This document shows positions 3,742 to 56,139 of a DNA stretch of 64,000 nt, in pieces. The position numbers and the translations under genes were made by a program. Under the pieces are notes generated by a model. That model made no database searches, was not told the origin of the DNA, and saw only the letters and a program-made list of their open reading frames with translations. Each line of letters opens with the position of its first letter. The stretch's first letter is position 1. The DNA comes from Rickettsiales bacterium (GTDB taxonomy: Bacteria; Pseudomonadota; Alphaproteobacteria; Rs-D84): contig JAIRRC010000032.1 of the NCBI GenBank assembly GCA_031256175.1, positions 347-64,346 on the forward strand. The letters are read 5' to 3'.

Positions 3742-4251
3742 CTAGGATAGTTCGGGGAACCAGAGGGAAATTTCGAACGCGGCTTCGTCCGCCGTTCCGC
3801 TCGCGTGCATAAGGTTGTGGCACGCGCGTTTCTCGGCGTTCGACAAGTCGTAGGAATCCATGCAATATTTCCCGCGTATCGTCGCCGGGTCCGCCGCCGC
3901 GGGATTCGTCGTGCCGCAAAGCTTGCGCACTATCGCGACCGCTTCGTTGCCCGAAAGAACCATCGCCATAACGCCGCCCGTTATATAATCCATCAATCTG
4001 TCGTAGACGATTTGCCCCTGCTTCATGCATGCGGCTTTGTCCGCGGACGCGCCCAAGTTTTTGCGGCCCAAACTTTCTATATATTCCGGCGCGCAGGAAT
4101 AATGCTTGTTCAGCAATTCTTTCGGCGGGGTGAAAAATTTCGCCGCGATTATATCCAGACCGGCGTCCTCGAACACAGATATTATTTTCCCGCAAAGCTT
4201 CCGCTTCACCGCGTCGGGTTTCAGGATTATCAGGGTGCGTTCGATTGGCAT
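3742..4251 (-). CDS. ndk: nucleoside diphosphate kinase
   Basis: ERTLIILKPDAV N-terminal NDK signature; start trimmed to MPIERTL. Confidence 0.8.
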   Translation of the reverse strand: MPIERTLIILKPDAVKRKLCGKIISVFEDAGLDIIAAKFFTPPKELLNKHYSCAPEYIESLGRKNLGASADKAACMKQGQIVYDRLMDYITGGVMAMVLSGNEAVAIVRKLCGTTNPAAADPATIRGKYCMDSYDLSNAEKRACHNLMHASGTADEAAFEISLWFPELS

Positions 4252-5899: not shown

Positions 5900-6114
5900 C
5901 TCTGCTTCCTTTTTGTTAAACGACAATGCGCGCCTTCCGACGGCATCTCGCGACGCGCACATCAATTCGCGCCTAATAACGGCGCTTATTGTGCGCTTAT
6001 TCGCTCGCTGTCATCTGTCTTTGCCAGACCATGCGTTTGTCATTTCCTTTATGTTTATAGCTAGACCGGATGATTTTACAATGCTATAATCCGTTTGTCA
6101 AATGGAGCCGAAAA

Positions 6115-10792: not shown

Positions 10793-10868
10793 GGGGCCGT
10801 AGCTCAGTTGGTAGAGCGCTTCGTTCGCAATGAAGAGGTCGGGAGTTCGAATCTCCTCGGTTCCACCA
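10793..10868 (+). tRNA. tRNA-Ala (anticodon CGC)
   Basis: 76-nt cloverleaf, G3:U70 Ala identity pair, anticodon loop TTCGCAA, encoded CCA. Confidence 0.9.
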
Positions 10869-10993
10869 TTAACTTGGTACCGCGCCATCCTTCGTTCCCT
10901 CGCGACGCGCACATCAACTCACGGCTAACAACGCCGCTCGTTGTGTGCTTATTCGCTCGTGCTCGAATCCGATTGGCTCCACCATTAACTTGG
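10869..10993 (+). repeat. tRNA-3'-associated structured element (family A, copy 2) ending in a direct repeat of the tRNA-Ala 3' end
   Basis: ~100-bp segment ~85% identical to 30574-30669 and to 5925-6020; 16-bp exact DR TCCACCATTAACTTGG at 10862-10877 and 10978-10993. Confidence 0.65.
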
Positions 10994-13119: not shown

Positions 13120-14025
13120 TTAGGACAGCCTCTTTTTCAAAGGCGCGATGTATTTGTCCATTATAGGGTCGTCAACTTCGTTCTGGTCGCAGATGTCGAA
13201 CGCTTCCCTTGTGTATTTCCTTATCCCGCCCGCCGCGCCGCCGCAGCCCGAACCGCGCGGCGCCCTTTTCGAATATTCCTCCCACGATTTGCAATGGTAA
13301 TGATTGCACCTTATCGCGAAGCCTTCTATCGGGCCTTCGTTCGACATGACGTTTTTCCCGGCGAACATATGGCGGCGGTGGATTCCGGGGCGCGCCGTGA
13401 AGCGCGGGTTCGCGATGGTCTTATACATGTCGCCCGGAAGTTTGAAATTGTTTTTCGCCGCGCGGGTTTTGAAATTCTCTATAACCAGGCCAGCCGGTTT
13501 CTTCTCGTGGCCGTTCGAACCATACATGACCCAGCCCGCCCAAACCTGCGAAGTATCTTTCGGAAGCGAATCCAGATATTCCGTTATGGTTTCATGTTCC
13601 GTCGGCACCAAGAATTCGTCCAAGTCTATAACCGCGAACCATTTCGCTTCGAATTTTTTCGTGTCGAAGGCGTGCTGATAAACGGCCAGCTGCTGCTTCT
13701 GGCCCGGCCAGAATTTATACTCGACCACGCCGGATTTTATATAAGGCGCCAAAACTTCCTTTATATCGTCCGTCGATTCATTGTCATAGATATAAAACTT
13801 TTCCACGCCAAGCATGCGATGGTATTCAATCCATTCGCGGAAATACGCGCCCTCGTTTTTCGCGATGGCGACTATCGCGAGCTTATAAGGAAATTCCAGC
13901 TTCGGTTCGGCAAGGCGCGCGCGTATGGATTTTATCAAACCGAAATGCAAAATGTTTCTTGCGCGGACGCGCCAAGGTCTGTAAGGAATCAATCCGCCGA
14001 TTATGTTTATTAGGGTTTTCTTCAT
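13120..14025 (-). CDS. glycosyltransferase family 92 (DUF23) protein, paralog 1
   Basis: AIAKNEGAYFREWIEYHRMLGVEKFYIYDNESTD..IDLDEFLVP signature; paralogous to 38734-39654 and 39651-40532. Confidence 0.75.
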   Translation of the reverse strand: MKKTLINIIGGLIPYRPWRVRARNILHFGLIKSIRARLAEPKLEFPYKLAIVAIAKNEGAYFREWIEYHRMLGVEKFYIYDNESTDDIKEVLAPYIKSGVVEYKFWPGQKQQLAVYQHAFDTKKFEAKWFAVIDLDEFLVPTEHETITEYLDSLPKDTSQVWAGWVMYGSNGHEKKPAGLVIENFKTRAAKNNFKLPGDMYKTIANPRFTARPGIHRRHMFAGKNVMSNEGPIEGFAIRCNHYHCKSWEEYSKRAPRGSGCGGAAGGIRKYTREAFDICDQNEVDDPIMDKYIAPLKKRLS

Positions 14026-14212: not shown

Positions 14213-14246
14213 GAATAAAAAGAGTCGCCGCAAAATGCGGCGACTT
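14213..14246 (-). terminator. rho-independent terminator of dnaK
   Basis: GTCGCCGC-AAAAT-GCGGCGAC hairpin followed on minus strand by CTCTTTTTATT. Confidence 0.7.
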
Positions 14247-14314
14247 AAAGACCACCCCGCCCGCCTTCGTCCTTTGGACTCCGGCGCGGCACCCCTCGCT
14301 ACGGGGGGAACTTT
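14247..14314 (-). repeat. 68-bp exact repeat R68 (copy 1), abutting the dnaK stop codon
   Basis: Identical to 44206-44273; GC-rich with internal CCCC..GGGG hairpin and complementary ends. Confidence 0.85.
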
Positions 14315-30499: not shown

Positions 30500-30573
30500 T
30501 GGGGCGTCGTCTAACGGTAGGACAAGAGATTTTGGTTCTCTTTATCGCGGTTCGAATCCGTGCGCCCCAACCA
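30500..30573 (+). tRNA. tRNA-Gln (anticodon UUG)
   Basis: 74-nt cloverleaf, U1:A72, anticodon stem AGAGA/TCTCT, loop TTTTGGT, encoded CCA. Confidence 0.85.
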
Positions 30574-30688
30574 GAATGCAGGCGCGCGCCATCCTTCGTT
30601 CCCTCGCGACGCGCACATCAATTCGCCGCTAATAACGCGGCTCATTGTGTGCTTGTTTGCTCGTGCTCGAATCCGTGCGCCCCAACCA
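30574..30688 (+). repeat. tRNA-3'-associated structured element (family A, copy 3) ending in 19-bp direct repeat of tRNA-Gln 3' end
   Basis: 96-bp segment homologous to 10878-10977 and 5925-6020; DR AATCCGTGCGCCCCAACCA at 30555-30573 and 30670-30688. Confidence 0.7.
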
Positions 30689-30855
30689 GATTTTTATCAC
30701 GCCCCGAAGAGGCGGGATAAAAATATGTATTGGGTTGCCGGATGAAGAACCGCGAGGAAGCGGTTCGACAACCAGCGTTGCATTTTTAATGCAACGCGCA
30801 GGTGCGGCGAAGCAAGGACGCCAGTCCTTGCGAGTCAATCCGTGCGCCCCAACCA
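30689..30855 (+). repeat. second tandem tRNA-3'-associated element (family B) ending in third copy of the tRNA-Gln 3' direct repeat
   Basis: 148-bp segment with perfect hairpin GCGTTGCAT-TTTTA-ATGCAACGC; third DR at 30837-30855; weak similarity to the tRNA-Met associated segment. Confidence 0.65.
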
Positions 30856-30869
30856 AATAGAGGTGAGAA

Positions 30870-38733: not shown

Positions 38734-39654
38734 TTAACTCAGGCGTTTTTTAAGGGGTGCGATGAATTTATCCATTATGGGGTCGGACACTTCGTTATGG
38801 TCGCAATTGTCGAAGAATTCCCGCGTGTATTTTTTCGCCCCGTGCGCTATGCCGCCCCTGCCCGTTCCGCGCGGCGCGCGCTTCTGGTATTCTTCCCACG
38901 ATTTGCAATGGTAATGGTTGCACCGAATCCCCCAGTCCGAAATCTTCCCGTCGCATTCCCTGACCTGCACGCCGGCGTCCAAGGTCCCCTGGTCGTGGCA
39001 ACTGGTCGCGATGACCAGGCGCGGATTGAAAACGCTTTTATGCGCGGGCCCGGGAAGCTTGAAATTATTCTCGGCCGCGCGGGTTTTGAAATTCTCTATA
39101 ACCAGGCCCGATGGTTTGGTCAAATGCCCGCCGCTGCCATACATCGCCCAGCCGACCAAAACTTGCGAAGCGTTTTTCGGCAATTTATCCAGATATTCCG
39201 GAATCGTTCCATCCTTCGTCGGGACCAAGAATTCATCCAAGTCGATGATGGCCATCCATTTCGTAGCGTATTTATGTTTCTTTATCGAATCCCAGTAGGC
39301 CTGCAACTGCACCCTTTGGCCCGGCCAGAATTTGTATTCCACCAGGCCCGATTTCATATAAGGCGTAAGCACCGACCTTGTGTTGTCAGTGGATTCATTG
39401 TCGTAAATGTAAAACTTCTCGACGCCCAGCATGCGATGGTATTCAATCCATTCCTTGAAATACGCGCCTTCGTTTTTCGCAATCGCGGTTATGGAAAGCT
39501 TATAGCGGAACTTCAATTTATGCTCGGTTTTCCGGAACCGGCGCGCGGCCAGGCAATAATTCACAAGCCCGAACGTCAAAGCGTTCCTGACTTTATGGCG
39601 CCGCTGCGGGTTCTTGAAAAACGCCGAGATTATATTCGCGAAAAATTTCCTCAT
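38734..39654 (-). CDS. glycosyltransferase family 92 protein, paralog 2
   Basis: Same GT92 signature; true start MRKFF at 39654 (ATGA overlap with paralog 3 stop); the upstream ORF extension to 40173 is another frame of paralog 3. Confidence 0.75.
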   Translation of the reverse strand: MRKFFANIISAFFKNPQRRHKVRNALTFGLVNYCLAARRFRKTEHKLKFRYKLSITAIAKNEGAYFKEWIEYHRMLGVEKFYIYDNESTDNTRSVLTPYMKSGLVEYKFWPGQRVQLQAYWDSIKKHKYATKWMAIIDLDEFLVPTKDGTIPEYLDKLPKNASQVLVGWAMYGSGGHLTKPSGLVIENFKTRAAENNFKLPGPAHKSVFNPRLVIATSCHDQGTLDAGVQVRECDGKISDWGIRCNHYHCKSWEEYQKRAPRGTGRGGIAHGAKKYTREFFDNCDHNEVSDPIMDKFIAPLKKRLS

Positions 39655-40532
39655 GCCTTTTCCTTTATGTCGTTCAAGTCGAATTTTTCGAAATAGTCCA
39701 GGCCGCGCTTGGCCAAAGACCGCGTCGCGCGGCCGCGCGCGCGCTTGTCCAAGAATTCCTGCCAGCTTTTGACCGCGTAATGCTTTATAAAAATCACGTC
39801 GTGCTGAGGCACGCGGCCCGGATGTTGGCGCAATATCGCGTCGCCGTGGGAATCCGCCGCGCGGCCGGCCAAGCGCACGGCTTCGTGCGTGCCGACGAAG
39901 GACGAAACCATTCTTGGATTCACTATCGCTTTGACATGGCGGTTCACTTCGGCTTCCGGGCGCGCGTGGCAGCGGAAGCGCGCCATGACGCCCCCGGCCG
40001 TTTTCTTCTTCGCGCCGCCGCTGCCGTAGCACAGCCAGTTGATTTCGACCAATGCGAATTTTTCGAACCGGCGCAAAAACTTTGGGATGGTTTTGTCCGC
40101 GACCGGCGCGATGAATTCGTCCAAGTCTATGAACGCAATCCAGCGCGCGTCCAGCCTGCGGCGCGCAAGGCAATCGTTGTATGACGGAATCTGCTTCAAT
40201 CTGCCCGGCACAAAAGTATATTCGACCAGGCCGGATTTTATGTATGGAGCCAAAACTTTTTTGGTATCGTCCGTCGATTCATTGTCGTATATATAGAATT
40301 TCTCGACGCCGAGCGCGCGGTGCCATTCAATCCATTCCTTGAAATAAGCGCCCTCGTTCTTGGCAATCGCCGCGACGGCGAGATAGTATTTCGGGCGGGT
40401 TTTGTCCGCGCGCATTTTGCGGCGCAGAAGAAACGCGCGAATCAGGCCAAAATTCACAAGCCCGCGAACGCGGCTTCGCGCGACTTTGCCCGGGACGAAG
40501 GCGGCGACGATTTCAGCGAGGACTTTTTTCAT
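39651..40532 (-). CDS. glycosyltransferase family 92 protein, paralog 3
   Basis: AIAKNEGAYFKEWIEWHRALGVEKFYIYDNESTDD..IDLDEFIAP. Confidence 0.75.
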   Translation of the reverse strand: MKKVLAEIVAAFVPGKVARSRVRGLVNFGLIRAFLLRRKMRADKTRPKYYLAVAAIAKNEGAYFKEWIEWHRALGVEKFYIYDNESTDDTKKVLAPYIKSGLVEYTFVPGRLKQIPSYNDCLARRRLDARWIAFIDLDEFIAPVADKTIPKFLRRFEKFALVEINWLCYGSGGAKKKTAGGVMARFRCHARPEAEVNRHVKAIVNPRMVSSFVGTHEAVRLAGRAADSHGDAILRQHPGRVPQHDVIFIKHYAVKSWQEFLDKRARGRATRSLAKRGLDYFEKFDLNDIKEKA

Positions 40533-42313: not shown

Positions 42314-44214
42314 TCCAGCATATTCTGCGGGACGGGAACCGGCATCGGAACCGGCATGCCGGTTTTATCGCCCCATTTAATAGCGTCCAGCAAATCTATA
42401 ACCCGGCCGTCTTCGAATATATTCTCGGACGCAACTTTGCGCCCGCCGAAATAATCGAAGCCCGGCAAATCTTCCGGCACCACCGGAATTTCGAATCCGT
42501 AATCGCCGCTCCAACCGATTTTCAGGCCGCCGTTCCAGCCGTTGTTTCCCGCGTTCTTCCTTATATCTATGTTCATATCTGCGACAAGCGGAATCTGGCC
42601 TTCGCGCGGGTTTATGCAATACGCGCAGCCGGACGGGTCGAGCACCATAAGCTGGCGCAATGCGCCGCAATAAATTCCCGCCGCGCCATTATCGCCAGCG
42701 CACCAGGCGGGGCTGCACGCCGCGGACCGGGCCGCGCGCGCGTATCCGGCGGGACATGGCGGAACAAGGCCGGGCTTTTCTTCCAAGCTGACGCATTCGC
42801 CCTTGTTGCCCGCGCCGCTTGGCACGAAAACCGCGTTCGCGCCGCAGACCGAGGAATGAGTTCCCGAGTATCTGCACGAAGCCACGAAAGGATGGAAGGC
42901 GCCGTTCGTATCGACCTTGAACGGCGAACAATCCAAGCAGTTGAATTTCCTGTTCATCGAATGGCCGGCGTCCAATGAAATGCCGACCGCCGCCAAGCCC
43001 GCGACATTATTCAACGCCGCCAAGTTATACGAAGGGTCGTTCGGGAATCCGAAATAGAACGCCTTATAATCGCCGCCGGAACATTCGGCCGCGTTCGGAT
43101 AGCAGCCTTTGAACGCAAGCCGCGACGCGTCCGGCACGCAGACAAGCGCGCAGGTAGCCGGGTCCTGCATTTCGGTTTCGCAGTCGCCGCACTGGCTGGC
43201 GGTCCGCATAACGCCGCCGCCGTAAGGCGACTTGCCCTTGGCGGGCGGCGGGCATTTGCCGACCTCTTCCGACGCCGCCATGAAGGGATTGCCTATGCAG
43301 ACCCATTCAAGTTTTTCATAATCATAACTTGCGACCTTGCCCTTCGGGCATTCTTTGGCCTCGGACGGCGGGCGGCAGGTCCAGACGCCGTCCATAAGCA
43401 CGGCCGTTTCAAGGCCGCCGCAAATCGGCCGCGCGGAAGCGTTCGCCACGCAGTCGCCGACTTCGGCGTCGAAAATCATGTCGCCCTGGCATAATTTTAC
43501 TTGGGTCGGCTGCTCGCACCGCCAAGTTCTGTATCTAAAAACCTTCACTTCGCCGGGCGCGCAGGAAAGGGTCGCAGCTTCGCGCCGGATTTGTTCGCTC
43601 CGCAATTCTTCCGCCGTGAATTGCGTCATATACGCCAAGTCGCCGGATTTCAGCGATGCGGCGCGGACCAGCGCATCGCTTAGCCAGACCGGGCGGGAGT
43701 TCGCCGATAGAATCGCGGTTTTCGATGCCGCTTCGCCCCCGTCGCCTTCGAATTCGGCGTTCATCACGATGCCGAGGCCGGGCGCGCCCTTATACTTGCG
43801 GCGCACGGCGTCCATTATGCGGCCGGAAGAATCAGCGCCCGCCCAAGGCGATTTCGTTATGACGAACCTTTGGATTTGCTCCGGATTTCGGGAATCGACG
43901 CGGCAGCTTCTGGACACTTCGCCGTCTTTAAGGCAGACGACCGACGACGACACCTTGTATTTATCGATACACGGACTTTCGGCCATGGCGTAGTTTTTAG
44001 CGCCGTCGTCTTCGGCCCGCGCCGATTCCAAAGCCGCGGCATGAAGCGCGACCACGCACGACACCGCCGCGAAGGCGTCGGACTTATCCAAGACTTCTTC
44101 GGATGTCTGGACATCGGTTCGCATGGAAGGGGCGCCCAGATAATAATATCCGGCCATGAACAGGAATACCAAGACGATTAGAAAAATGTTCATACATTCT
44201 CTCTCAAAGACCAC
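42265..44214 (-). CDS. large cysteine-rich secreted/anchored protein of unknown function
   Basis: 649 aa, N-terminal hydrophobic anchor, >40 Cys in CxxC/CG clusters, Pro-rich C-terminus (PVPMPVPVP); heads the minus-strand polysaccharide operon. Confidence 0.55.
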   Translation of the reverse strand: MVFERECMNIFLIVLVFLFMAGYYYLGAPSMRTDVQTSEEVLDKSDAFAAVSCVVALHAAALESARAEDDGAKNYAMAESPCIDKYKVSSSVVCLKDGEVSRSCRVDSRNPEQIQRFVITKSPWAGADSSGRIMDAVRRKYKGAPGLGIVMNAEFEGDGGEAASKTAILSANSRPVWLSDALVRAASLKSGDLAYMTQFTAEELRSEQIRREAATLSCAPGEVKVFRYRTWRCEQPTQVKLCQGDMIFDAEVGDCVANASARPICGGLETAVLMDGVWTCRPPSEAKECPKGKVASYDYEKLEWVCIGNPFMAASEEVGKCPPPAKGKSPYGGGVMRTASQCGDCETEMQDPATCALVCVPDASRLAFKGCYPNAAECSGGDYKAFYFGFPNDPSYNLAALNNVAGLAAVGISLDAGHSMNRKFNCLDCSPFKVDTNGAFHPFVASCRYSGTHSSVCGANAVFVPSGAGNKGECVSLEEKPGLVPPCPAGYARAARSAACSPAWCAGDNGAAGIYCGALRQLMVLDPSGCAYCINPREGQIPLVADMNIDIRKNAGNNGWNGGLKIGWSGDYGFEIPVVPEDLPGFDYFGGRKVASENIFEDGRVIDLLDAIKWGDKTGMPVPMPVPVPQNMLDCAMSGARCAPDQTAE

Positions 44215-44273
44215 CCCGCCCGCCTTCGTCCTTTGGACTCCGGCGCGGCACCCCTCGCTACGGGGGGAACTTT
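44206..44273 (-). repeat. 68-bp exact repeat R68 (copy 2), overlapping the stop codon of the MerR-family gene
   Basis: Identical to 14247-14314. Confidence 0.85.
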
Positions 44274-51095: not shown

Positions 51096-51300
51096 TGGTG
51101 GGTTAGCACGGACTCGCTCGCCCTTGCGGGCTGCGCGGCATTCGTATTCGCCGCTTGCGCGGCTTCGTTCGAACTTCGCCTTACGGCTCGTTCTCACTAA
51201 CTCATTGTCGAACCGCCCGCCGCTTCGCGGCTCTTTGCGGATTCTCGTCCGCGCATAATTATCCAAAAATTTGCGACAGCCTTCGGCCGTCTTAAATTTT
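51096..51300 (-). repeat. tRNA-3'-associated element downstream of tRNA-Met ending in a 21-bp direct repeat of the tRNA 3' end
   Basis: 184-bp ORF-less segment; DR TGGTGGGTTAGCACGGACTCG at 51301-51321 and 51096-51116. Confidence 0.65.
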
Positions 51301-51377
51301 TGGTGGGTTAGCACGGACTCGAACCGCGGACCAAAGCGTTATGAGCGCTCCGCTCTAACCAACTGAGCTACTAACCC
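51301..51377 (-). tRNA. tRNA-Met (anticodon CAU; elongator or tRNA-Ile2)
   Basis: 77-nt cloverleaf, G1:C72 (not initiator), anticodon loop CTCATAA, encoded CCA. Confidence 0.85.
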
Positions 51378-51495
51378 GTTCCATATGCGTCGTCCAATTA
51401 TAGCGGCGGAATCGAAAAATGCAACGCCTTTTTTGCCTTTCTCAGGAATTCATACCGATAGCTATAATTTCCTCGGCCGCGCTATCCTTCCAGAC

Positions 51496-51966
51496 ATGAA
51501 GAAAGCTATATTTTTTATTTTGGCGGCGATAATGCACGCGAACCCCGTTCTGGCGGCGACAGCGACAGGAAACGCTTCGGTTGTAATACAGCCGACGATT
51601 ACGGCGACCCAGACCCAGGCGATGAATTTCGGGACCATAACGCCGACCGCAAGCGCCGGGACCGCCGTGCTTTCGACCGCGGGGGCCGTCACCAGCGGAA
51701 CGCTCGGGACATACGACACAACGACGCAGGGCATATTCACGATTACGGCCGCGGACAGCACCGCGCTTAACATAACGTTTTCCACCGGAACGCTGACGTC
51801 GGGCGGCAACAGCATGACCATCAACGCCTTCACCACAAGCCCGGCGACTTATACCACCAGCGCTTCGGGCACGCTGACGCTGGATGTCGGCGCGACGCTG
51901 AACGTCGCGGCGAACCAGGCCACGGGCTCTTACAGCGGGACCTATACGATGACGGTCAGTTATTGA
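51496..51966 (+). CDS. spore-coat-U (SCPU) domain pilin, Csu-type major subunit
   Basis: Signal peptide, Thr/Ser/Gly-rich, C-terminal TGSYSGTYTMTVSY motif. Confidence 0.6.
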   Translation: MKKAIFFILAAIMHANPVLAATATGNASVVIQPTITATQTQAMNFGTITPTASAGTAVLSTAGAVTSGTLGTYDTTTQGIFTITAADSTALNITFSTGTLTSGGNSMTINAFTTSPATYTTSASGTLTLDVGATLNVAANQATGSYSGTYTMTVSY

Positions 51967-52877
51967 AAAACGCCCTATCGGTTTTCGCCGCATTCGTATT
52001 ATTATTACGAAGCGCCGCAGCGTCGACCTTCGTAGTATCGCAGGACCTGTCGTTCGGGACGCTTGTTCCGATTTCAAGCTCGGGCAGCGTGGTCGTCGGA
52101 ATCAACAGCGCCATCACGACCAACGGCTCGGTAAGCGTCGCGCCAAGCGGCACCGCTTATTACGCGGGGCTGGGCGTCTTCACAGGAAGCGGTTTAAGCG
52201 TGGTCGCGGACGTCCTTACGATAACCATCCTGTCCAGCAGCGTCAATCTGTCGAACGGAAGCGGCGGGGTCGTGGTCGTGAACAATTTCACCGCGACGCC
52301 GAATTCGTCCATATCGCTTCTGTCGCCCAGCACGAACGTCTATGTCGGCGGAACGATGAACTTCACGTCGGCGTCGACGCCCGGGAACTATACCGGTTCC
52401 GTCCAGGTTCAGGGAAGCGGTTTGCTTAGCGGAACGGTTGTCATGACTTTGCCAATCATACTGACATTGTGGAATCCGCTGGGCATATCGCAGACGGCGG
52501 CGCTGTCGTTCGGCGGGCTTGAAATACTTGGCGGGAATTCGGTCGTGCAAATCGCGCCGCAGACCGGCGCGCGGACAATCGTTTCGGGAACGGGCGGCGT
52601 GAACCTTATATCCGGCAATCCGGGGAACGCGGGCGTTTTCCAGATAACCGGGAATCCGAACACAAGCGTCACGATAACCCTGCCAAGCACCGCAAGCCTG
52701 ACCGGGCCCGGAACCGCGATGAGCGTAAGCAATTTCACGGGGTATCCAAGCTCGACCGCGGCGACGCTTGGCGCAAGCGGAACGCTGACGCTGGACGTCG
52801 GCGCGCAGCTGAACGTGAACGCGGCCCAGGCGGCCGGGACATACAGCGGAACATATACGCTGACCGCAAGCTACTAA
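51963..52877 (+). CDS. SCPU-domain fimbrial subunit (larger, possibly tip or second subunit)
   Basis: Same composition and C-terminal AGTYSGTYTLTASY; overlaps previous stop. Confidence 0.55.
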   Translation: MKNALSVFAAFVLLLRSAAASTFVVSQDLSFGTLVPISSSGSVVVGINSAITTNGSVSVAPSGTAYYAGLGVFTGSGLSVVADVLTITILSSSVNLSNGSGGVVVVNNFTATPNSSISLLSPSTNVYVGGTMNFTSASTPGNYTGSVQVQGSGLLSGTVVMTLPIILTLWNPLGISQTAALSFGGLEILGGNSVVQIAPQTGARTIVSGTGGVNLISGNPGNAGVFQITGNPNTSVTITLPSTASLTGPGTAMSVSNFTGYPSSTAATLGASGTLTLDVGAQLNVNAAQAAGTYSGTYTLTASY

Positions 52878-52888
52878 AAGGACAAGAA

Positions 52889-53647
52889 ATGAAAAAAATC
52901 GCGCTGTTCGCCATGCTTCTTTCAATCATTCCCCTTCCGGTTTTTCCGAACATATCGCTATCGCCGTTCTTTCTGGAATTCGACGCCGATTCGAAAAACA
53001 AATCCGGCCAGGTGCGGTTCACCAACTCCACGAGCGAGACGCGCACATACAATATAAAGCTGGTGAATTTCAAACAGAACAAGGACGGGTCCTACACGAC
53101 CATAACGGCGCCCGTCGACGGGAATCCATCCGCCGATTATTATCTGGAATATTCGCCGCGGCAGGTTTCGCTTCCATCGATGAAATCCCAGGTCGTGCGC
53201 GTCCAGCGCCGCGGGATGGCGGGCGCCGCGCCGGGCGAATACGTTTCGCACCTGCTGGTCCAGGAAGTCCCGAAAGAGAAAAAATCCGAAAATAAAAAAC
53301 CCGAAGGCATAAGCATCGACCTGAAAGTCGTCTATGGAATTTCGATTCCCGTCATCATAACGAAGGGAAGCCTTTCGGCAAGCGCGCGAATCAAAAGCGC
53401 GAAGATTTCCAAAAAAGACCATGTCGCCGAAGTCGAAATCGAAAGGTCCGGGGACAGGTCGTTCTTCGGCTCGATAATAATAAAGGACAACGGAAGCGAA
53501 ATCGGAAAGATTTCGGACTTCCGGATTTTCACGACGACCAAATCGCGCGTCCTTAAAGTTCCGCTAAGCAAGAACCCGTCGGGCGAGGCTTCCGCCACGC
53601 TCATCGACGGGCGCACGGGCGAAATCGCCGGGATAAAAGGCATATAG
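52889..53647 (+). CDS. periplasmic pilus chaperone (PapD/CsuC-like)
   Basis: Signal peptide, Ig-like chaperone N-domain pattern, position between pilins and usher. Confidence 0.6.
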   Translation: MKKIALFAMLLSIIPLPVFPNISLSPFFLEFDADSKNKSGQVRFTNSTSETRTYNIKLVNFKQNKDGSYTTITAPVDGNPSADYYLEYSPRQVSLPSMKSQVVRVQRRGMAGAAPGEYVSHLLVQEVPKEKKSENKKPEGISIDLKVVYGISIPVIITKGSLSASARIKSAKISKKDHVAEVEIERSGDRSFFGSIIIKDNGSEIGKISDFRIFTTTKSRVLKVPLSKNPSGEASATLIDGRTGEIAGIKGI

Positions 53648-53649
53648 AT

Positions 53650-56139
53650 GTGTCCAGAAAACTCTGCGCCGCTTTATTCATATTCGCGACCGGCGGCGCC
53701 GCGGCGGAAACGACGCTTCTGGCGCCCAACATACAGGGATACAATTCCGAAGCGATAATCCATGCGTTCGATTCCGGCGGCAAATATTATCTGGACGCGC
53801 ATGACCTGTCGGAATCGCTTCGATTCCAATTCGACCCGGACACCGGAAAAGGCAGCTTTCTGGGCAAAGATTTTTACGCGGGCGCGAAATCCGGGCGCGT
53901 GAAAAAAAACGGGCGCGACTATTATCCATTGGATTTCTACGAAAGGATTCTTCCGGTGAAGCTGAAAGTGAACGCGCTTGAATCGCAACTGGAAGTCCGG
54001 TCGGAACAAACCCTTCCGACCACGCAGAACCATCGCAATGAAGCGCGCCGCCAGAACATGGCGCCCGCGCCCAAGGACGACCCCTTCGGCAACTATGAAT
54101 TCGACGAAAGGTTCTTCTCGGCCCCAGTATCCGACCTGATTTACAGGCGAAGCGAAACAAAAGCGCGCGGCGGCAGCTGGTCCGGCGGCGACTATTATCA
54201 GGCCAACCTGGGGATGCTGTTCGCCGGGCTTGACTCCACATCGACGATATTCGGCGACAACAGGGCGGACGCGCCGCGCGCGCGGATAATCGTCGGGCGC
54301 ACTTTTTTAGAGGAACCGCGCAACGCCGCGAACCTGGTCAAGTTCCAGGCCGGCGATATTTTCGGAAACCCGAACAGCATGTTCAACCGCAACGCTTCGG
54401 GGCGCGGCGTCTATGCGAATTCGTTCAAGGACCTGGTCATATCCGCCGACAAGACAATCGACATAAACGGCCTTATGCCCAGCGGATGGGAGGCCGAGCT
54501 TTACCTGAACGACCAGCTGATAGGATTCCGCCAGGGAAGCACCGACGGAAGATACGATTTCAGGAACATTCCCGTGAACTACGGCCTGAACAATTTCAAG
54601 GTCGTGCTATACGGGCCTTTCGGCGAAGTCCGCGAGGAAGAACGCAGGTATTATTCCGGAACCGCGCCCGTCAAATCAGGCGAATTCGGATACAGCGCCA
54701 GCGCGTATCAGGCGCGAAGATTTCTGATAGAAGCCAACGAGCCCAACGCCGACCGGCGCGAAAACATAACCGCCGACTCGCTTTTCTATTACGGCGCAAG
54801 CGACCACCTGGTTCTTATCGCGGGCGCCTCGAACGCGCCCAGCGCCACTGAAAAAGGCAAGGACCTGCAATTCGGGACCGCGGGCGCGCAGGTCGCGCTG
54901 AACGGGGTGTCGCTTCAATACAACCTCAACGGCGATTTCCAGAATGAAAAAATCGGGCACCATGCGGACGCGCAAGGCAACATCCATATCGGCGACGTTT
55001 TCGCGCGATACGAATACTACGGCGAAACCCGCGCGCCGATTTCGCACTACCAGGGAAAATATCTGAACGATTTGTTCGAAGGCCGCCTTACCGGATGGAT
55101 TCCATTCGCGAACATCCCGTATTACGCGTCGTATTTGCAGAACGATTTTCCGGTCCGCGAAGTCCGCGCGCGAATGTCGCCGAACTTTCTGCGCCATTAC
55201 AACCAGACGTTCGAGAATGTCTGGCGGGACAACGCCGGAAGCGTCGAGAACCACGTCGAATCCCTGACGCAGGCGACGTTCGGAAGGTTCAGAATCTTCG
55301 CGCGCGCAAGATACCAGACCCAGCCCGACAACTATTGGCGAAGCTACGGCGGCTTTTCGGAATACCGGTGGAACCGCAACACTTTCATAAACGCAAGCTG
55401 GAACCACGACTGCCGCTCGAACTATATGGACGCGCGCGATTTGGATTCCGGCACAATCGGAATCGGCCGCATATTTCCCTTCGGCGGGCTGCAAGCGTCG
55501 GCGACTATGGACACCGACCGGAACATTTCGTTCGGCCTGACTTACAACGCAAGCTTCGGCAAAGTTCCGGACAGATACGCGCCATTCATGAATTCGGAAA
55601 CGCAGATGGCGAACTATGGCGCCATATACGCGCGCGCGGTCGACGAAAGCGGCGCGCCCGTCAAAAACGCGAAGATAATCGTCGGCGGCGTCCAGCAGCC
55701 CGCGTCCACCGACGAGGACGGCGGCGCACTTATCGTGAATTTGGAGCCGTATCAAAAAACCATCATGACCATAGACGAGCAAGACGTGGACGACATCGCG
55801 CTTACGCCGGAATGGACGCAAAAGAAACTTGTCCTGCGGCCGGGCACCGCGCGCCTTGTCGAAATCCCGTTCCACCGCCTGGGCGGAATCGAAGGCATCC
55901 TGACCGGCACCGCGCCCGGCGTCAGATACAAGATTTACGTGAAGGACGAACTGGGCGCAAGCGCGGCCGTCAAAATCGCCGACGAAGACGGCGCGTTCCT
56001 GTTCGACGGACTGAAATACGGCGATTACAGATTGGAAATTTTCGTCGGGCAAGACAGGCTTGTCGCGACTCAGAACATAAAAATCGACAGAAGTTTCCGC
56101 TCCATCGAAACGCCAATCGATGTCCGGTTGAAAAACTAG
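53650..56139 (+). CDS. fimbrial usher outer-membrane protein (CsuD-like)
   Basis: 829 aa, signal peptide, beta-barrel-rich, operon context. Confidence 0.65.
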   Translation: MSRKLCAALFIFATGGAAAETTLLAPNIQGYNSEAIIHAFDSGGKYYLDAHDLSESLRFQFDPDTGKGSFLGKDFYAGAKSGRVKKNGRDYYPLDFYERILPVKLKVNALESQLEVRSEQTLPTTQNHRNEARRQNMAPAPKDDPFGNYEFDERFFSAPVSDLIYRRSETKARGGSWSGGDYYQANLGMLFAGLDSTSTIFGDNRADAPRARIIVGRTFLEEPRNAANLVKFQAGDIFGNPNSMFNRNASGRGVYANSFKDLVISADKTIDINGLMPSGWEAELYLNDQLIGFRQGSTDGRYDFRNIPVNYGLNNFKVVLYGPFGEVREEERRYYSGTAPVKSGEFGYSASAYQARRFLIEANEPNADRRENITADSLFYYGASDHLVLIAGASNAPSATEKGKDLQFGTAGAQVALNGVSLQYNLNGDFQNEKIGHHADAQGNIHIGDVFARYEYYGETRAPISHYQGKYLNDLFEGRLTGWIPFANIPYYASYLQNDFPVREVRARMSPNFLRHYNQTFENVWRDNAGSVENHVESLTQATFGRFRIFARARYQTQPDNYWRSYGGFSEYRWNRNTFINASWNHDCRSNYMDARDLDSGTIGIGRIFPFGGLQASATMDTDRNISFGLTYNASFGKVPDRYAPFMNSETQMANYGAIYARAVDESGAPVKNAKIIVGGVQQPASTDEDGGALIVNLEPYQKTIMTIDEQDVDDIALTPEWTQKKLVLRPGTARLVEIPFHRLGGIEGILTGTAPGVRYKIYVKDELGASAAVKIADEDGAFLFDGLKYGDYRLEIFVGQDRLVATQNIKIDRSFRSIETPIDVRLKN

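Follow-up and report, generated by a model that had tools for sequence, protein, structure and literature searches.

Does a short palindromic sequence that recurs beside tRNA genes of an uncultured Rickettsiales bacterium, and once away from any tRNA, represent an RNA gene, or is it better understood as a mobile piece of DNA? We addressed this question in a 64,000-nt stretch of DNA (hereafter the window), which lies within a 64,380-bp contig of a Rickettsiales metagenome-assembled genome (MAG; locus tag LBG89). An earlier note on the same DNA had described three copies of one core, here termed family A, whose hairpin stems differ by substitutions that preserve base pairing, and had taken this covariation as an argument for a functional RNA or a selected DNA hairpin.

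Three copies of one hairpin-forming core

Three exact occurrences of the 18-mer TCGCGACGCGCACATCAA were present in the window (at 5948, 10900 and 30604, all on the + strand), compared to an expected count of 0.18 from shuffled sequences. The copies were alignable over ~84 nt, at 5929-6012 (c1, the orphan copy), 10881-10964 (c2) and 30585-30668 (c3), and a covariance model built from family A scored them at 103.4, 109.3 and 111.9 bits, respectively. The presence of three copies of one core is therefore confirmed by the 18-mer, the alignment and the covariance model, and no further family-A copy was detected in the window by the model with its filters off. The core measured ~85 nt, and the unit ~115 nt where a tail was included.

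Each core holds a central hairpin (+ strand), located at 5957-5996 in c1 by folding and alignment, and at 10909-10948 in c2 and 30613-30652 in c3 by folding. It is built from an outer GCACA/TGTGC stem, a bulged T, a CAAN/NTTG segment, a small internal loop, a variable 5-bp inner stem and a TAAYAAC loop, which reads TAATAAC in two of the window copies and TAACAAC in c2. The inner stems reported previously (GCGCC/GGCGC at 5969-5985 in c1, CGGC/GCCG at 10922-10936 in c2, and GCCGC/GCGGC at 30625-30641 in c3) were correctly placed, but the hairpin had been drawn too short, as it extends outwards through the CAAN/NTTG segment and the bulged T to the outer stem. When folded as DNA, all five family-A copies available (these three and two from a sister genome, below) adopted the same hairpin (z -2.1 to -6.3; -4.5 for the c3 hairpin). 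Z-scores for whole units were modest (-1.4 to -3.2, the latter for c3 folded as RNA).

Distribution among relatives and in wider databases

Relatives were reached via xth homologues and their contigs. The closest was MAG LBH81 (JAIRUP01, Cyl330_bin36), in which xth is 83% identical to that of the window, and to which locus tags and neighbouring protein accessions assign loci L007, L051, L054/L055 and L059 as parts of one genome (hereafter the sister). Among farther relatives, xth identity was 79% for L047, 75% for L048-L050 and 64% for L052. Two family-A copies were found in the sister: one after tRNA-Lys(CTT), at the end of contig L007 where its tail is not visible, and one orthologous to c1, in the spacer that separates xth from the AMP-binding (acyl-CoA synthetase) gene (L051 1325-1409, equivalent to L059 9831-9915; 76.8 bits). 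Orthologous loci followed via a Ppx-like gene yielded no new copies, and tRNA-Gln synteny was not kept there. For the end of the contig that holds the window, one terminal ORF had no database record, and a query with xth led only to a Logan contig from this same organism. Horizontal transfer between distant genomes, suggested by identical 37-nt 5' parts, was considered and dropped once L007 and L051 were both recognised as LBH81.

Beyond these relatives, a scan of 185,579 GTDB species genomes with conserved 18-/19-mers and hairpin patterns returned 38 matches, only one of which was true; the remaining 37 arose by chance, mostly from one conserved coding motif in genes of Actinobacteria and Chloroflexi. 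K-mer and hairpin-pattern scans of JGI metagenome contigs gave zero and then seven matches, all by chance, a scan of IMG/VR for family A returned nothing, and blastn of the c3 unit against plasmids and phages produced no match. Assemblies tended to break inside the family-A element. In these data, family A was found only in one pair of uncultured Rickettsiales genomes, and literature searches found no description of tRNA-tailed mini-inserts.

A copy without a tRNA

The orphan c1 occupies the spacer between the acyl-CoA synthetase gene and xth and, as had been noted before, has no neighbouring tRNA. The accompanying statement that it lacks a tail is essentially right, the segment at 6013-6032 (+ strand, TCATCTGTCTTTGCCAGACCA) having only a weak, degenerate and uncertain likeness to a tRNA 3' tail that is partly kept in the sister ortholog. 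To the left of the core, a variable linker (TTAAACGACAATG, 5916-5928, + strand) has its TTAAAC start in common with the sister copy linked to tRNA-Lys. The flanks of c1 have drifted to ~85% identity with those of the ortholog, no flanking duplication was found around c1, and in L052 the synthetase gene and xth lie 95 bp apart with no family-A element between them. The insertion is older than the split between the window and its sister.

Two promoter-like sites stand face to face at 6054-6101, one for the AMP-binding gene (TTGACA-17-TAAAAT, 11/12, 6073-6101 on the - strand, conserved in the sister) and one for xth (TAGACC-17-TATAAT with an upstream TG). This block was nearly unchanged in the sister while the remaining spacer drifted. 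The AMP-binding-gene site lies past c1 as seen from that gene, and if it is used as predicted, c1 probably lies in antisense within the 5' leader of the synthetase gene.

Units bounded by tRNA 3' segments

The main context of the other copies was missed in the earlier reading, namely that the tRNA-linked copies are bounded by repeats of tRNA 3' segments and that a second family is arranged alike. Units at tRNA genes begin directly after the CCA, with the core 9-12 nt past it, and the core is followed by a second tRNA copy that runs from the T-loop to CCA. Such inserts were present at three of the four tRNAs of the window, and a direct repeat of the tRNA 3' segment stood at both ends of the unit at c3 (24 nt, exact), at c2 and at the family-B insert of tRNA-Met (20 nt, exact).

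At tRNA-Ala(CGC) (10793-10868, + strand), the linker TTAACTTGGTAC (10869-10880, + strand) joins the CCA to the core of c2, and the tail, a tRNA-Ala 3' segment from T-loop to CCA (10963-10984, + strand), is followed by TTAACTTGG (10985-10993, + strand), a second occurrence of the 9 nt found directly past the CCA of tRNA-Ala. The repeat of the tRNA-Ala 3' region spans 31 nt with five mismatches. All 22 bases of the tail (22/22) matched the 3' end of the sister tRNA-Ala, whereas five clustered stem positions differed from the tRNA-Ala of the window itself, so the tail is a separate tRNA-Ala 3'-end allele and not a duplicate of the resident gene. An allele of this kind is what att-type recombination would leave when the element brings a tRNA segment with it, or what a 3'-end swap would produce. 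A simple target-site duplication at tRNA-Ala was rejected on the same comparison, as the tail matches the sister allele and not the resident tRNA. The two tRNA-Ala(CGC) genes (window 10793-10868 versus L059 14199-14274) differ at exactly 10 positions, all in acceptor/T-stem pairs and five per strand, with the other 66 positions all identical; these stem differences look like a 3'-segment swap followed by matching changes in the 5' strand, or like import of an allele.

The tRNA-Ala site of the sister (L059) was empty of family A, suggesting that c2 is newer than the window/sister split, or that it was lost in the sister. The tRNA-Ala and tRNA-Gln genes of L047 and L048 likewise have neither a family-A element nor a tRNA 3' repeat. 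Compared to L047 (15939-16014) and L048 (12229-12304), both the window and the sister have tRNA-Ala(CGC) in reversed orientation with respect to MetRS and dnaK, and the genes downstream of it differ between window and sister; the tRNA 3' end is therefore a rearrangement point.

At tRNA-Gln(TTG) (30500-30573, + strand), the 3' segment occurs three times in all. The last 22 nt of the gene plus GA (30552-30575) constitute the first direct repeat, the second is an exact 24-nt copy (30667-30690, + strand), and the third is degenerate (83%; 30834-30857, + strand), so that the order reads repeat, A, exact repeat, B, degenerate repeat. The degenerate repeat is probably the original 3' end of tRNA-Gln. 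In the window, the Ppx-like gene follows this tRNA-Gln/A/B array. At L058 (~1400-1700), a distant relative, the region upstream of the same gene instead holds what looks like a two-piece (permuted) tmRNA gene, with an acceptor piece ending in GGTTCGATTCCCTCCGCCTCCACCA, then GGGGGCGACCGGCTTCGACAGG and a tag frame ending in LAA.

The first 37 nt were identical among c2, c3 and the sister tRNA-Lys copy. Given this identity in the tRNA-linked copies and the drift of the orphan, the former look constrained or young and the latter looks dead. The 7 nt ahead of the core matched the 5' acceptor strand of the cognate tRNA at 5/7 positions for Ala and Gln and 4/7 for Lys, compared to 3-4/7 for non-cognate tRNAs.

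A second family with the same layout

Family B repeats the layout of family A at three tRNAs (Gln(TTG), Met and the sister Gln(CTG)) in two genomes. Its insert at tRNA-Gln(TTG) is 143 nt long (30691-30833, + strand) and consists of a terminator-like hairpin and then a highly structured core. The insert after tRNA-Met(CAT) (tRNA at 51301-51377, insert at 51116-51300, both on the - strand) is homologous to the insert after the sister tRNA-Gln(CTG) (L059 3963-4140), and is followed by an exact 20-nt repeat of the tRNA-Met 3' segment (GAGTCCGTGCTAACCCACCA, 51096-51115, - strand). The terminator-like hairpin comes first in the family-B copies, which have in common the core GCGGTTCGACAATGAGTTAG...CCGCGCAGsCCGnAAGGsCGAGC with GNRA-type hairpins, and every copy ends at a T-loop-to-3'-end copy of its cognate tRNA. 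Fold z-scores were -7.7 (the insert at tRNA-Gln(TTG)) and -3.95, and the Rfam matches of family B were all sub-threshold (Betaproteobacteria-1, 20.9 bits; tmRNA_permuted, 18.4 bits). At its start, the tRNA-Gln copy is similar to the 5' end of tRNA-Gln itself (TATTGGGTTGCCG versus TATTGGGGCGTCG).

A third, GC-rich repeat was also observed, in 71-nt copies that are 99% identical, at 14244-14314 (beside the 3' end of dnaK) and 44203-44273 (beside a MerR gene). In the sister tRNA-Ala (L059 14275-14300) and in tRNA-Gln(CTG) of L047 (638-670), the CCA is immediately followed by a related motif, ATCCGCCTTCGC..CGGCGCGA, which also occurs downstream of efp (L059 ~3835-3880) and can be loosely aligned to the left part of family A (CCTTCG...CG.CGCG). 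Directly downstream of the L047 tRNA-Gln(CTG) and its GC-rich motif is a gene for a 79-aa GIY-YIG (T5orf172) protein (749-988), which may be a free-standing gene of homing-endonuclease type next to a tRNA. The longest direct repeats in the window are of another kind, namely diverged glycosyltransferase family 92 paralogues (13120-14025, 38734-40173 and 39651-40532) with 69-77% DNA identity. Right beside tRNA-Met, genes for two DUF4402 proteins, one weakly PapD-like protein and a protein of 829 aa are clustered at 51385-56139. They may form a surface fibre locus of the chaperone-usher type, an unusual feature for Rickettsiales if so.

Covariation and the evolution of the stem

Covariation was assessed on the five family-A copies, three from the window and two from LBH81. 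Pairing was kept in 89.6% of cells, five base pairs had changed on both sides (13 cells), and none of 500 shuffles reached the observed covariation (0/500), while controls with slid partners reduced pairing to 30-54%. The earlier observation that paired substitutions preserve the stem is thus upheld with the two extra copies included. The structural constraint on the hairpin is real.

The further step from covariation to a functional RNA goes beyond the evidence, for several reasons: the element is an insertion missing at orthologous sites in relatives; the type of stem tracks the genome rather than the locus; template-switch repair in a DNA palindrome yields the same pattern with no RNA involved; and there is no Rfam match, nor does the asymmetry of wobbles and mismatches settle the strand. 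In Rfam searches of the window at gathering thresholds only the four tRNAs matched, and a search at E<=10 over the c1, c2 and c3 regions gave nothing plausible. The asymmetry between G.U and A.C pairs favoured the minus strand in three cases and the plus strand in one, which is not significant.

The two sister copies, although at different loci, carry one common AT stem (AAAATTTTC/GAAAATTTT), whereas the stems of the three window copies are all GC and set apart from each other by single pair flips, and c1 differs from its sister ortholog at 7/8 positions on each arm. In the flanks, by contrast, c1 and its ortholog have substitutions in common that are absent from the tRNA-linked copies. Stems thus group by genome and flanks by locus, which points to short-tract gene conversion or hairpin replacement among copies within a genome. 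Stepwise compensated drift explains the pattern less well than gene conversion or a cassette-like replacement does. A DNA hairpin would also be expected to show two-sided pair changes, as would a palindrome that undergoes gene conversion.

Coding potential, terminators and mobility genes

The small open reading frames with the common peptide RDAHINSRL had been dismissed as artefacts of nucleotide conservation, a judgement that agrees with our results: three of the six reading frames are open across family A (the RDAHINS frame and two others), a search of their translations against 5.8 billion proteins gave nothing at E<=10, and stem swaps alter the encoded residues. Hidden copies mis-called as small ORFs were also sought with the three open-frame translations concatenated, and none was found.

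A loose terminator scan flagged the inner stem of c1 followed by TTATTGTG, a different, shifted stem in c2, and none in c3. No T-run directly follows the stem in c2 or c3, and the tail of c3 is followed by a separate, strong terminator-like hairpin. Readings of the hairpin as an anticodon-arm mimic, a dif/Xer site or attC were compared by eye against the consensus sequences, and none fits.

No integrase (including Phage_integrase), transposase or other mobilising gene was found among the ~30 ORFs of the window or in the annotated neighbour loci, no Cas1, HUH or Y1 gene in the loci examined, and no ORF within the 90-190 bp inserts. In the sister, genes for type IV secretion components (CagX/VirB9-like and TrbI/VirB10-like) are located at L054 1-3781, within a few kb of the Ppx-like gene, so the lineage has conjugation-type machinery that could move DNA.

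Origin of the inserts

Integrated elements usually leave tRNA gene fragments as their footprint (PMC9897764). With a probability that we would put at roughly 0.45, family A is a palindromic mobile element, non-autonomous, that entered the 3' ends of tRNA genes through att-type recombination. The repeated sequence would then be the core of a small, gene-less, lineage-restricted element that normally resides at such 3' ends. Incoming DNA would bring a tRNA 3' segment with it, and att-type site-specific integration would leave a second copy from T-loop to CCA; units could stack in tandem, such as A and then B at tRNA-Gln, and the enzyme that moves them would be encoded elsewhere. The hairpin, with its fixed loop, bulged T and outer stem and its free but paired inner stem, may serve as a structure-specific recognition or processing feature for propagation, and exchange between arms and between copies, through gene conversion or template switching, may in part keep it palindromic. 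The orphan c1 would be an old spacer insertion from before the split, with drifted flanks and no usable tail.

Several points sit uneasily with this account of a mobile element. To our knowledge, units of 115-190 bp are far below the size of known integrated elements, and circles that small are poor substrates for tyrosine recombinases. That one core is found with differing tRNA tails (Ala and Gln; for Lys the tail is not seen) is awkward for conservative recombination, and target duplication would fit it more naturally. Moreover, the 37-nt identity across species, despite xth being 83% identical, could mean purifying selection for a host function. The second occurrence of TTAACTTGG after the c2 tail does not follow from this account, the comparison covers five copies, and no mobilising gene was found among the ~30 window ORFs or the annotated neighbour loci.

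In an alternative that we regard as unlikely, family A is a functional structured RNA derived from the tRNA transcript, with tRNA, core and tail transcribed as one. The tail would pair with the linker into an acceptor-like stem ending in ACCA, giving an excised tRNA-like small RNA or a cis role in tRNA maturation. All tRNA-linked copies are indeed in the orientation of the tRNA with no intervening terminator, the strong terminator-like hairpin lies past the c3 tail, the covarying hairpin has a conserved loop, the 37-nt 5' part of the tRNA-linked copies is identical across species, linkers resemble the cognate 5' acceptor strand (5/7, 5/7 and 4/7), and predicted folds close the unit using the tail. 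However, the linker resemblance is weak and was spotted post hoc, whole-unit fold z-scores are modest, no Rfam family matches, and three mismatches that read A.C on the plus strand would form G.U pairs on the minus strand. The tail appears to have no T-stem partner and hence to form no tRNA-like minihelix, and transcription of the orphan copy would run the opposite way. The element is also dispensable, since it is missing at the sister tRNA-Ala and wholly from the other relatives.

Somewhat more doubtful is the proposal that the units are inert scars, the remnants of larger islands that integrated at tRNAs and were then deleted, with the palindrome kept by mutational template switching and not by selection. 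Tandem att-like tRNA repeats, the lack of mobilising genes nearby, the synteny breaks beside c1 and c2, the tRNA-Ala inversion relative to L047 and L048, and stem types that follow the genome, as mechanical homogenisation would produce, are all in keeping with scars. Independent deletions, however, would not yield the same 84-nt core and boundaries at three tRNAs and one non-tRNA site; conservation of the loop, of the bulge and of the 37-nt 5' part is too strong for neutral debris, and family B recurs with conserved boundaries as well.

A more speculative scheme, to which we give little weight, treats families A and B as an undescribed class of miniature elements targeted to tRNA 3' ends, where a cognate T-loop-to-CCA copy is in every case either brought along or newly made. 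Each unit would amount to a tRNA-ended minigene, with a linker able to pair with the tail, then a structured core and ACCA, perhaps spread via an RNA or single-strand intermediate, by recognition of a tRNA-like 3' end or by ruler-type target duplication and not by a classical integrase.

We consider it improbable that family A transposes either by duplicating a long target stretch through staggered cuts at the T-loop and just past the tRNA, as by a casposase- or CRISPR-integrase-like enzyme, or through a hairpin-binding HUH enzyme acting on single-stranded DNA. In favour of such a mechanism are the single core with different tRNA-specific tails, the exact repeats at tRNA-Gln and tRNA-Met, and the array at tRNA-Gln, which reads as repeat, insert, repeat, insert and degenerate repeat. 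Structure-specific single-strand DNA enzymes (IS200/IS605, REP/RAYT, attC) recognise hairpins with a conserved loop, a bulged base and free stems, features that family A would suit. Yet the c2 tail differs from the resident tRNA at five clustered positions and matches the sister allele, the loci examined hold no Cas1, HUH or Y1 gene, and the orphan has no flanking duplication.

Finally, it is very improbable that the hairpin is the intrinsic terminator of the upstream tRNA or that the sequence encodes a peptide: the flagged stems in c1 (with TTATTGTG) and c2 and the three of six open frames would allow it, but the c2 and c3 stems have no T-run, a separate and seemingly real terminator-like hairpin follows c3, 5.8 billion proteins contain nothing similar, and stem changes alter amino acids.

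Comparison with known systems

If the units are mobile, no smaller inserts between att-like repeats of tRNA origin would be known, and one core would be travelling with the 3' ends of different tRNAs in a manner not readily explained by current integrase models. In reduced Rickettsiales genomes, the units coincide with rearrangement points and with breaks in assemblies, and the 3' end of a tRNA gene can be exchanged through them. For RNA discovery they carry a caution, in that clean compensatory changes in repeats can stem from concerted evolution of palindromes and not from selection on RNA.

Among known systems, the att footprints of prophages, ICEs and genomic islands (tandem accretion, CIME type) likewise place an insert between a complete tRNA and a partial copy running from the T-loop to the 3' end, and further likenesses are the tandem inserts with a repeat between them and the tRNA-Ala copies that are different alleles, as if from a previous host. 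Unlike such elements, the inserts of families A and B measure 90-190 bp and not kilobases, are gene-less and have no integrase that we could find, the same family-A core occurs with the tails of different tRNAs, and one copy sits at a non-tRNA site.

Resemblance of another kind links family A to the Rickettsia palindromic elements (RPEs), MITEs, REP/BIME, Correia/NEMIS and ERIC sequences, which are also short, gene-less, multi-copy, hairpin-forming and lineage-restricted, and vary in presence between relatives. RPEs additionally match in their Rickettsiales host and their several open frames, a likeness of features and not of compared sequences. However, none of the five family-A copies (0/5) lies within a protein gene, where RPEs are often inserted in frame. 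In contrast to MITEs, the palindrome of family A is internal, the ends show no clear inverted repeats accompanied by a short duplication of the target, and the flanking tRNA repeats are 20-31 nt long. The link to tRNA 3' ends and the tRNA-derived tail set family A apart from RPEs and MITEs alike.

The hairpin itself recalls integron attC sites, IS200/IS605 and REP hairpins (Y1/HUH), which likewise combine short conserved sequence elements with a free-but-paired stem and a conserved unpaired base. Family A nevertheless lacks the RYYYAAC/GTTRRRY boxes, cassette array and intI that accompany attC, as well as a GTAG/CTAC foot, and no TnpA or RAYT gene occurs in the loci seen. In ending with T-loop-to-ACCA, and in having sequence before the core that can pair with the tail, the unit is also reminiscent of tmRNA, YrlA (bacterial Y-RNA-like) and viral tRNA-like structures. 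Unlike these RNAs, family A has no T-arm and no Rfam match, and only its family-B neighbour gives weak sub-threshold scores.

Overall, with its status as an RNA gene not proven, family A would best be regarded as an unusual variant of selfish bacterial repeats: it works most like the att-flanked elements at tRNA genes, looks most like bacterial palindromic repeats such as RPEs, and fails the defining features of each.
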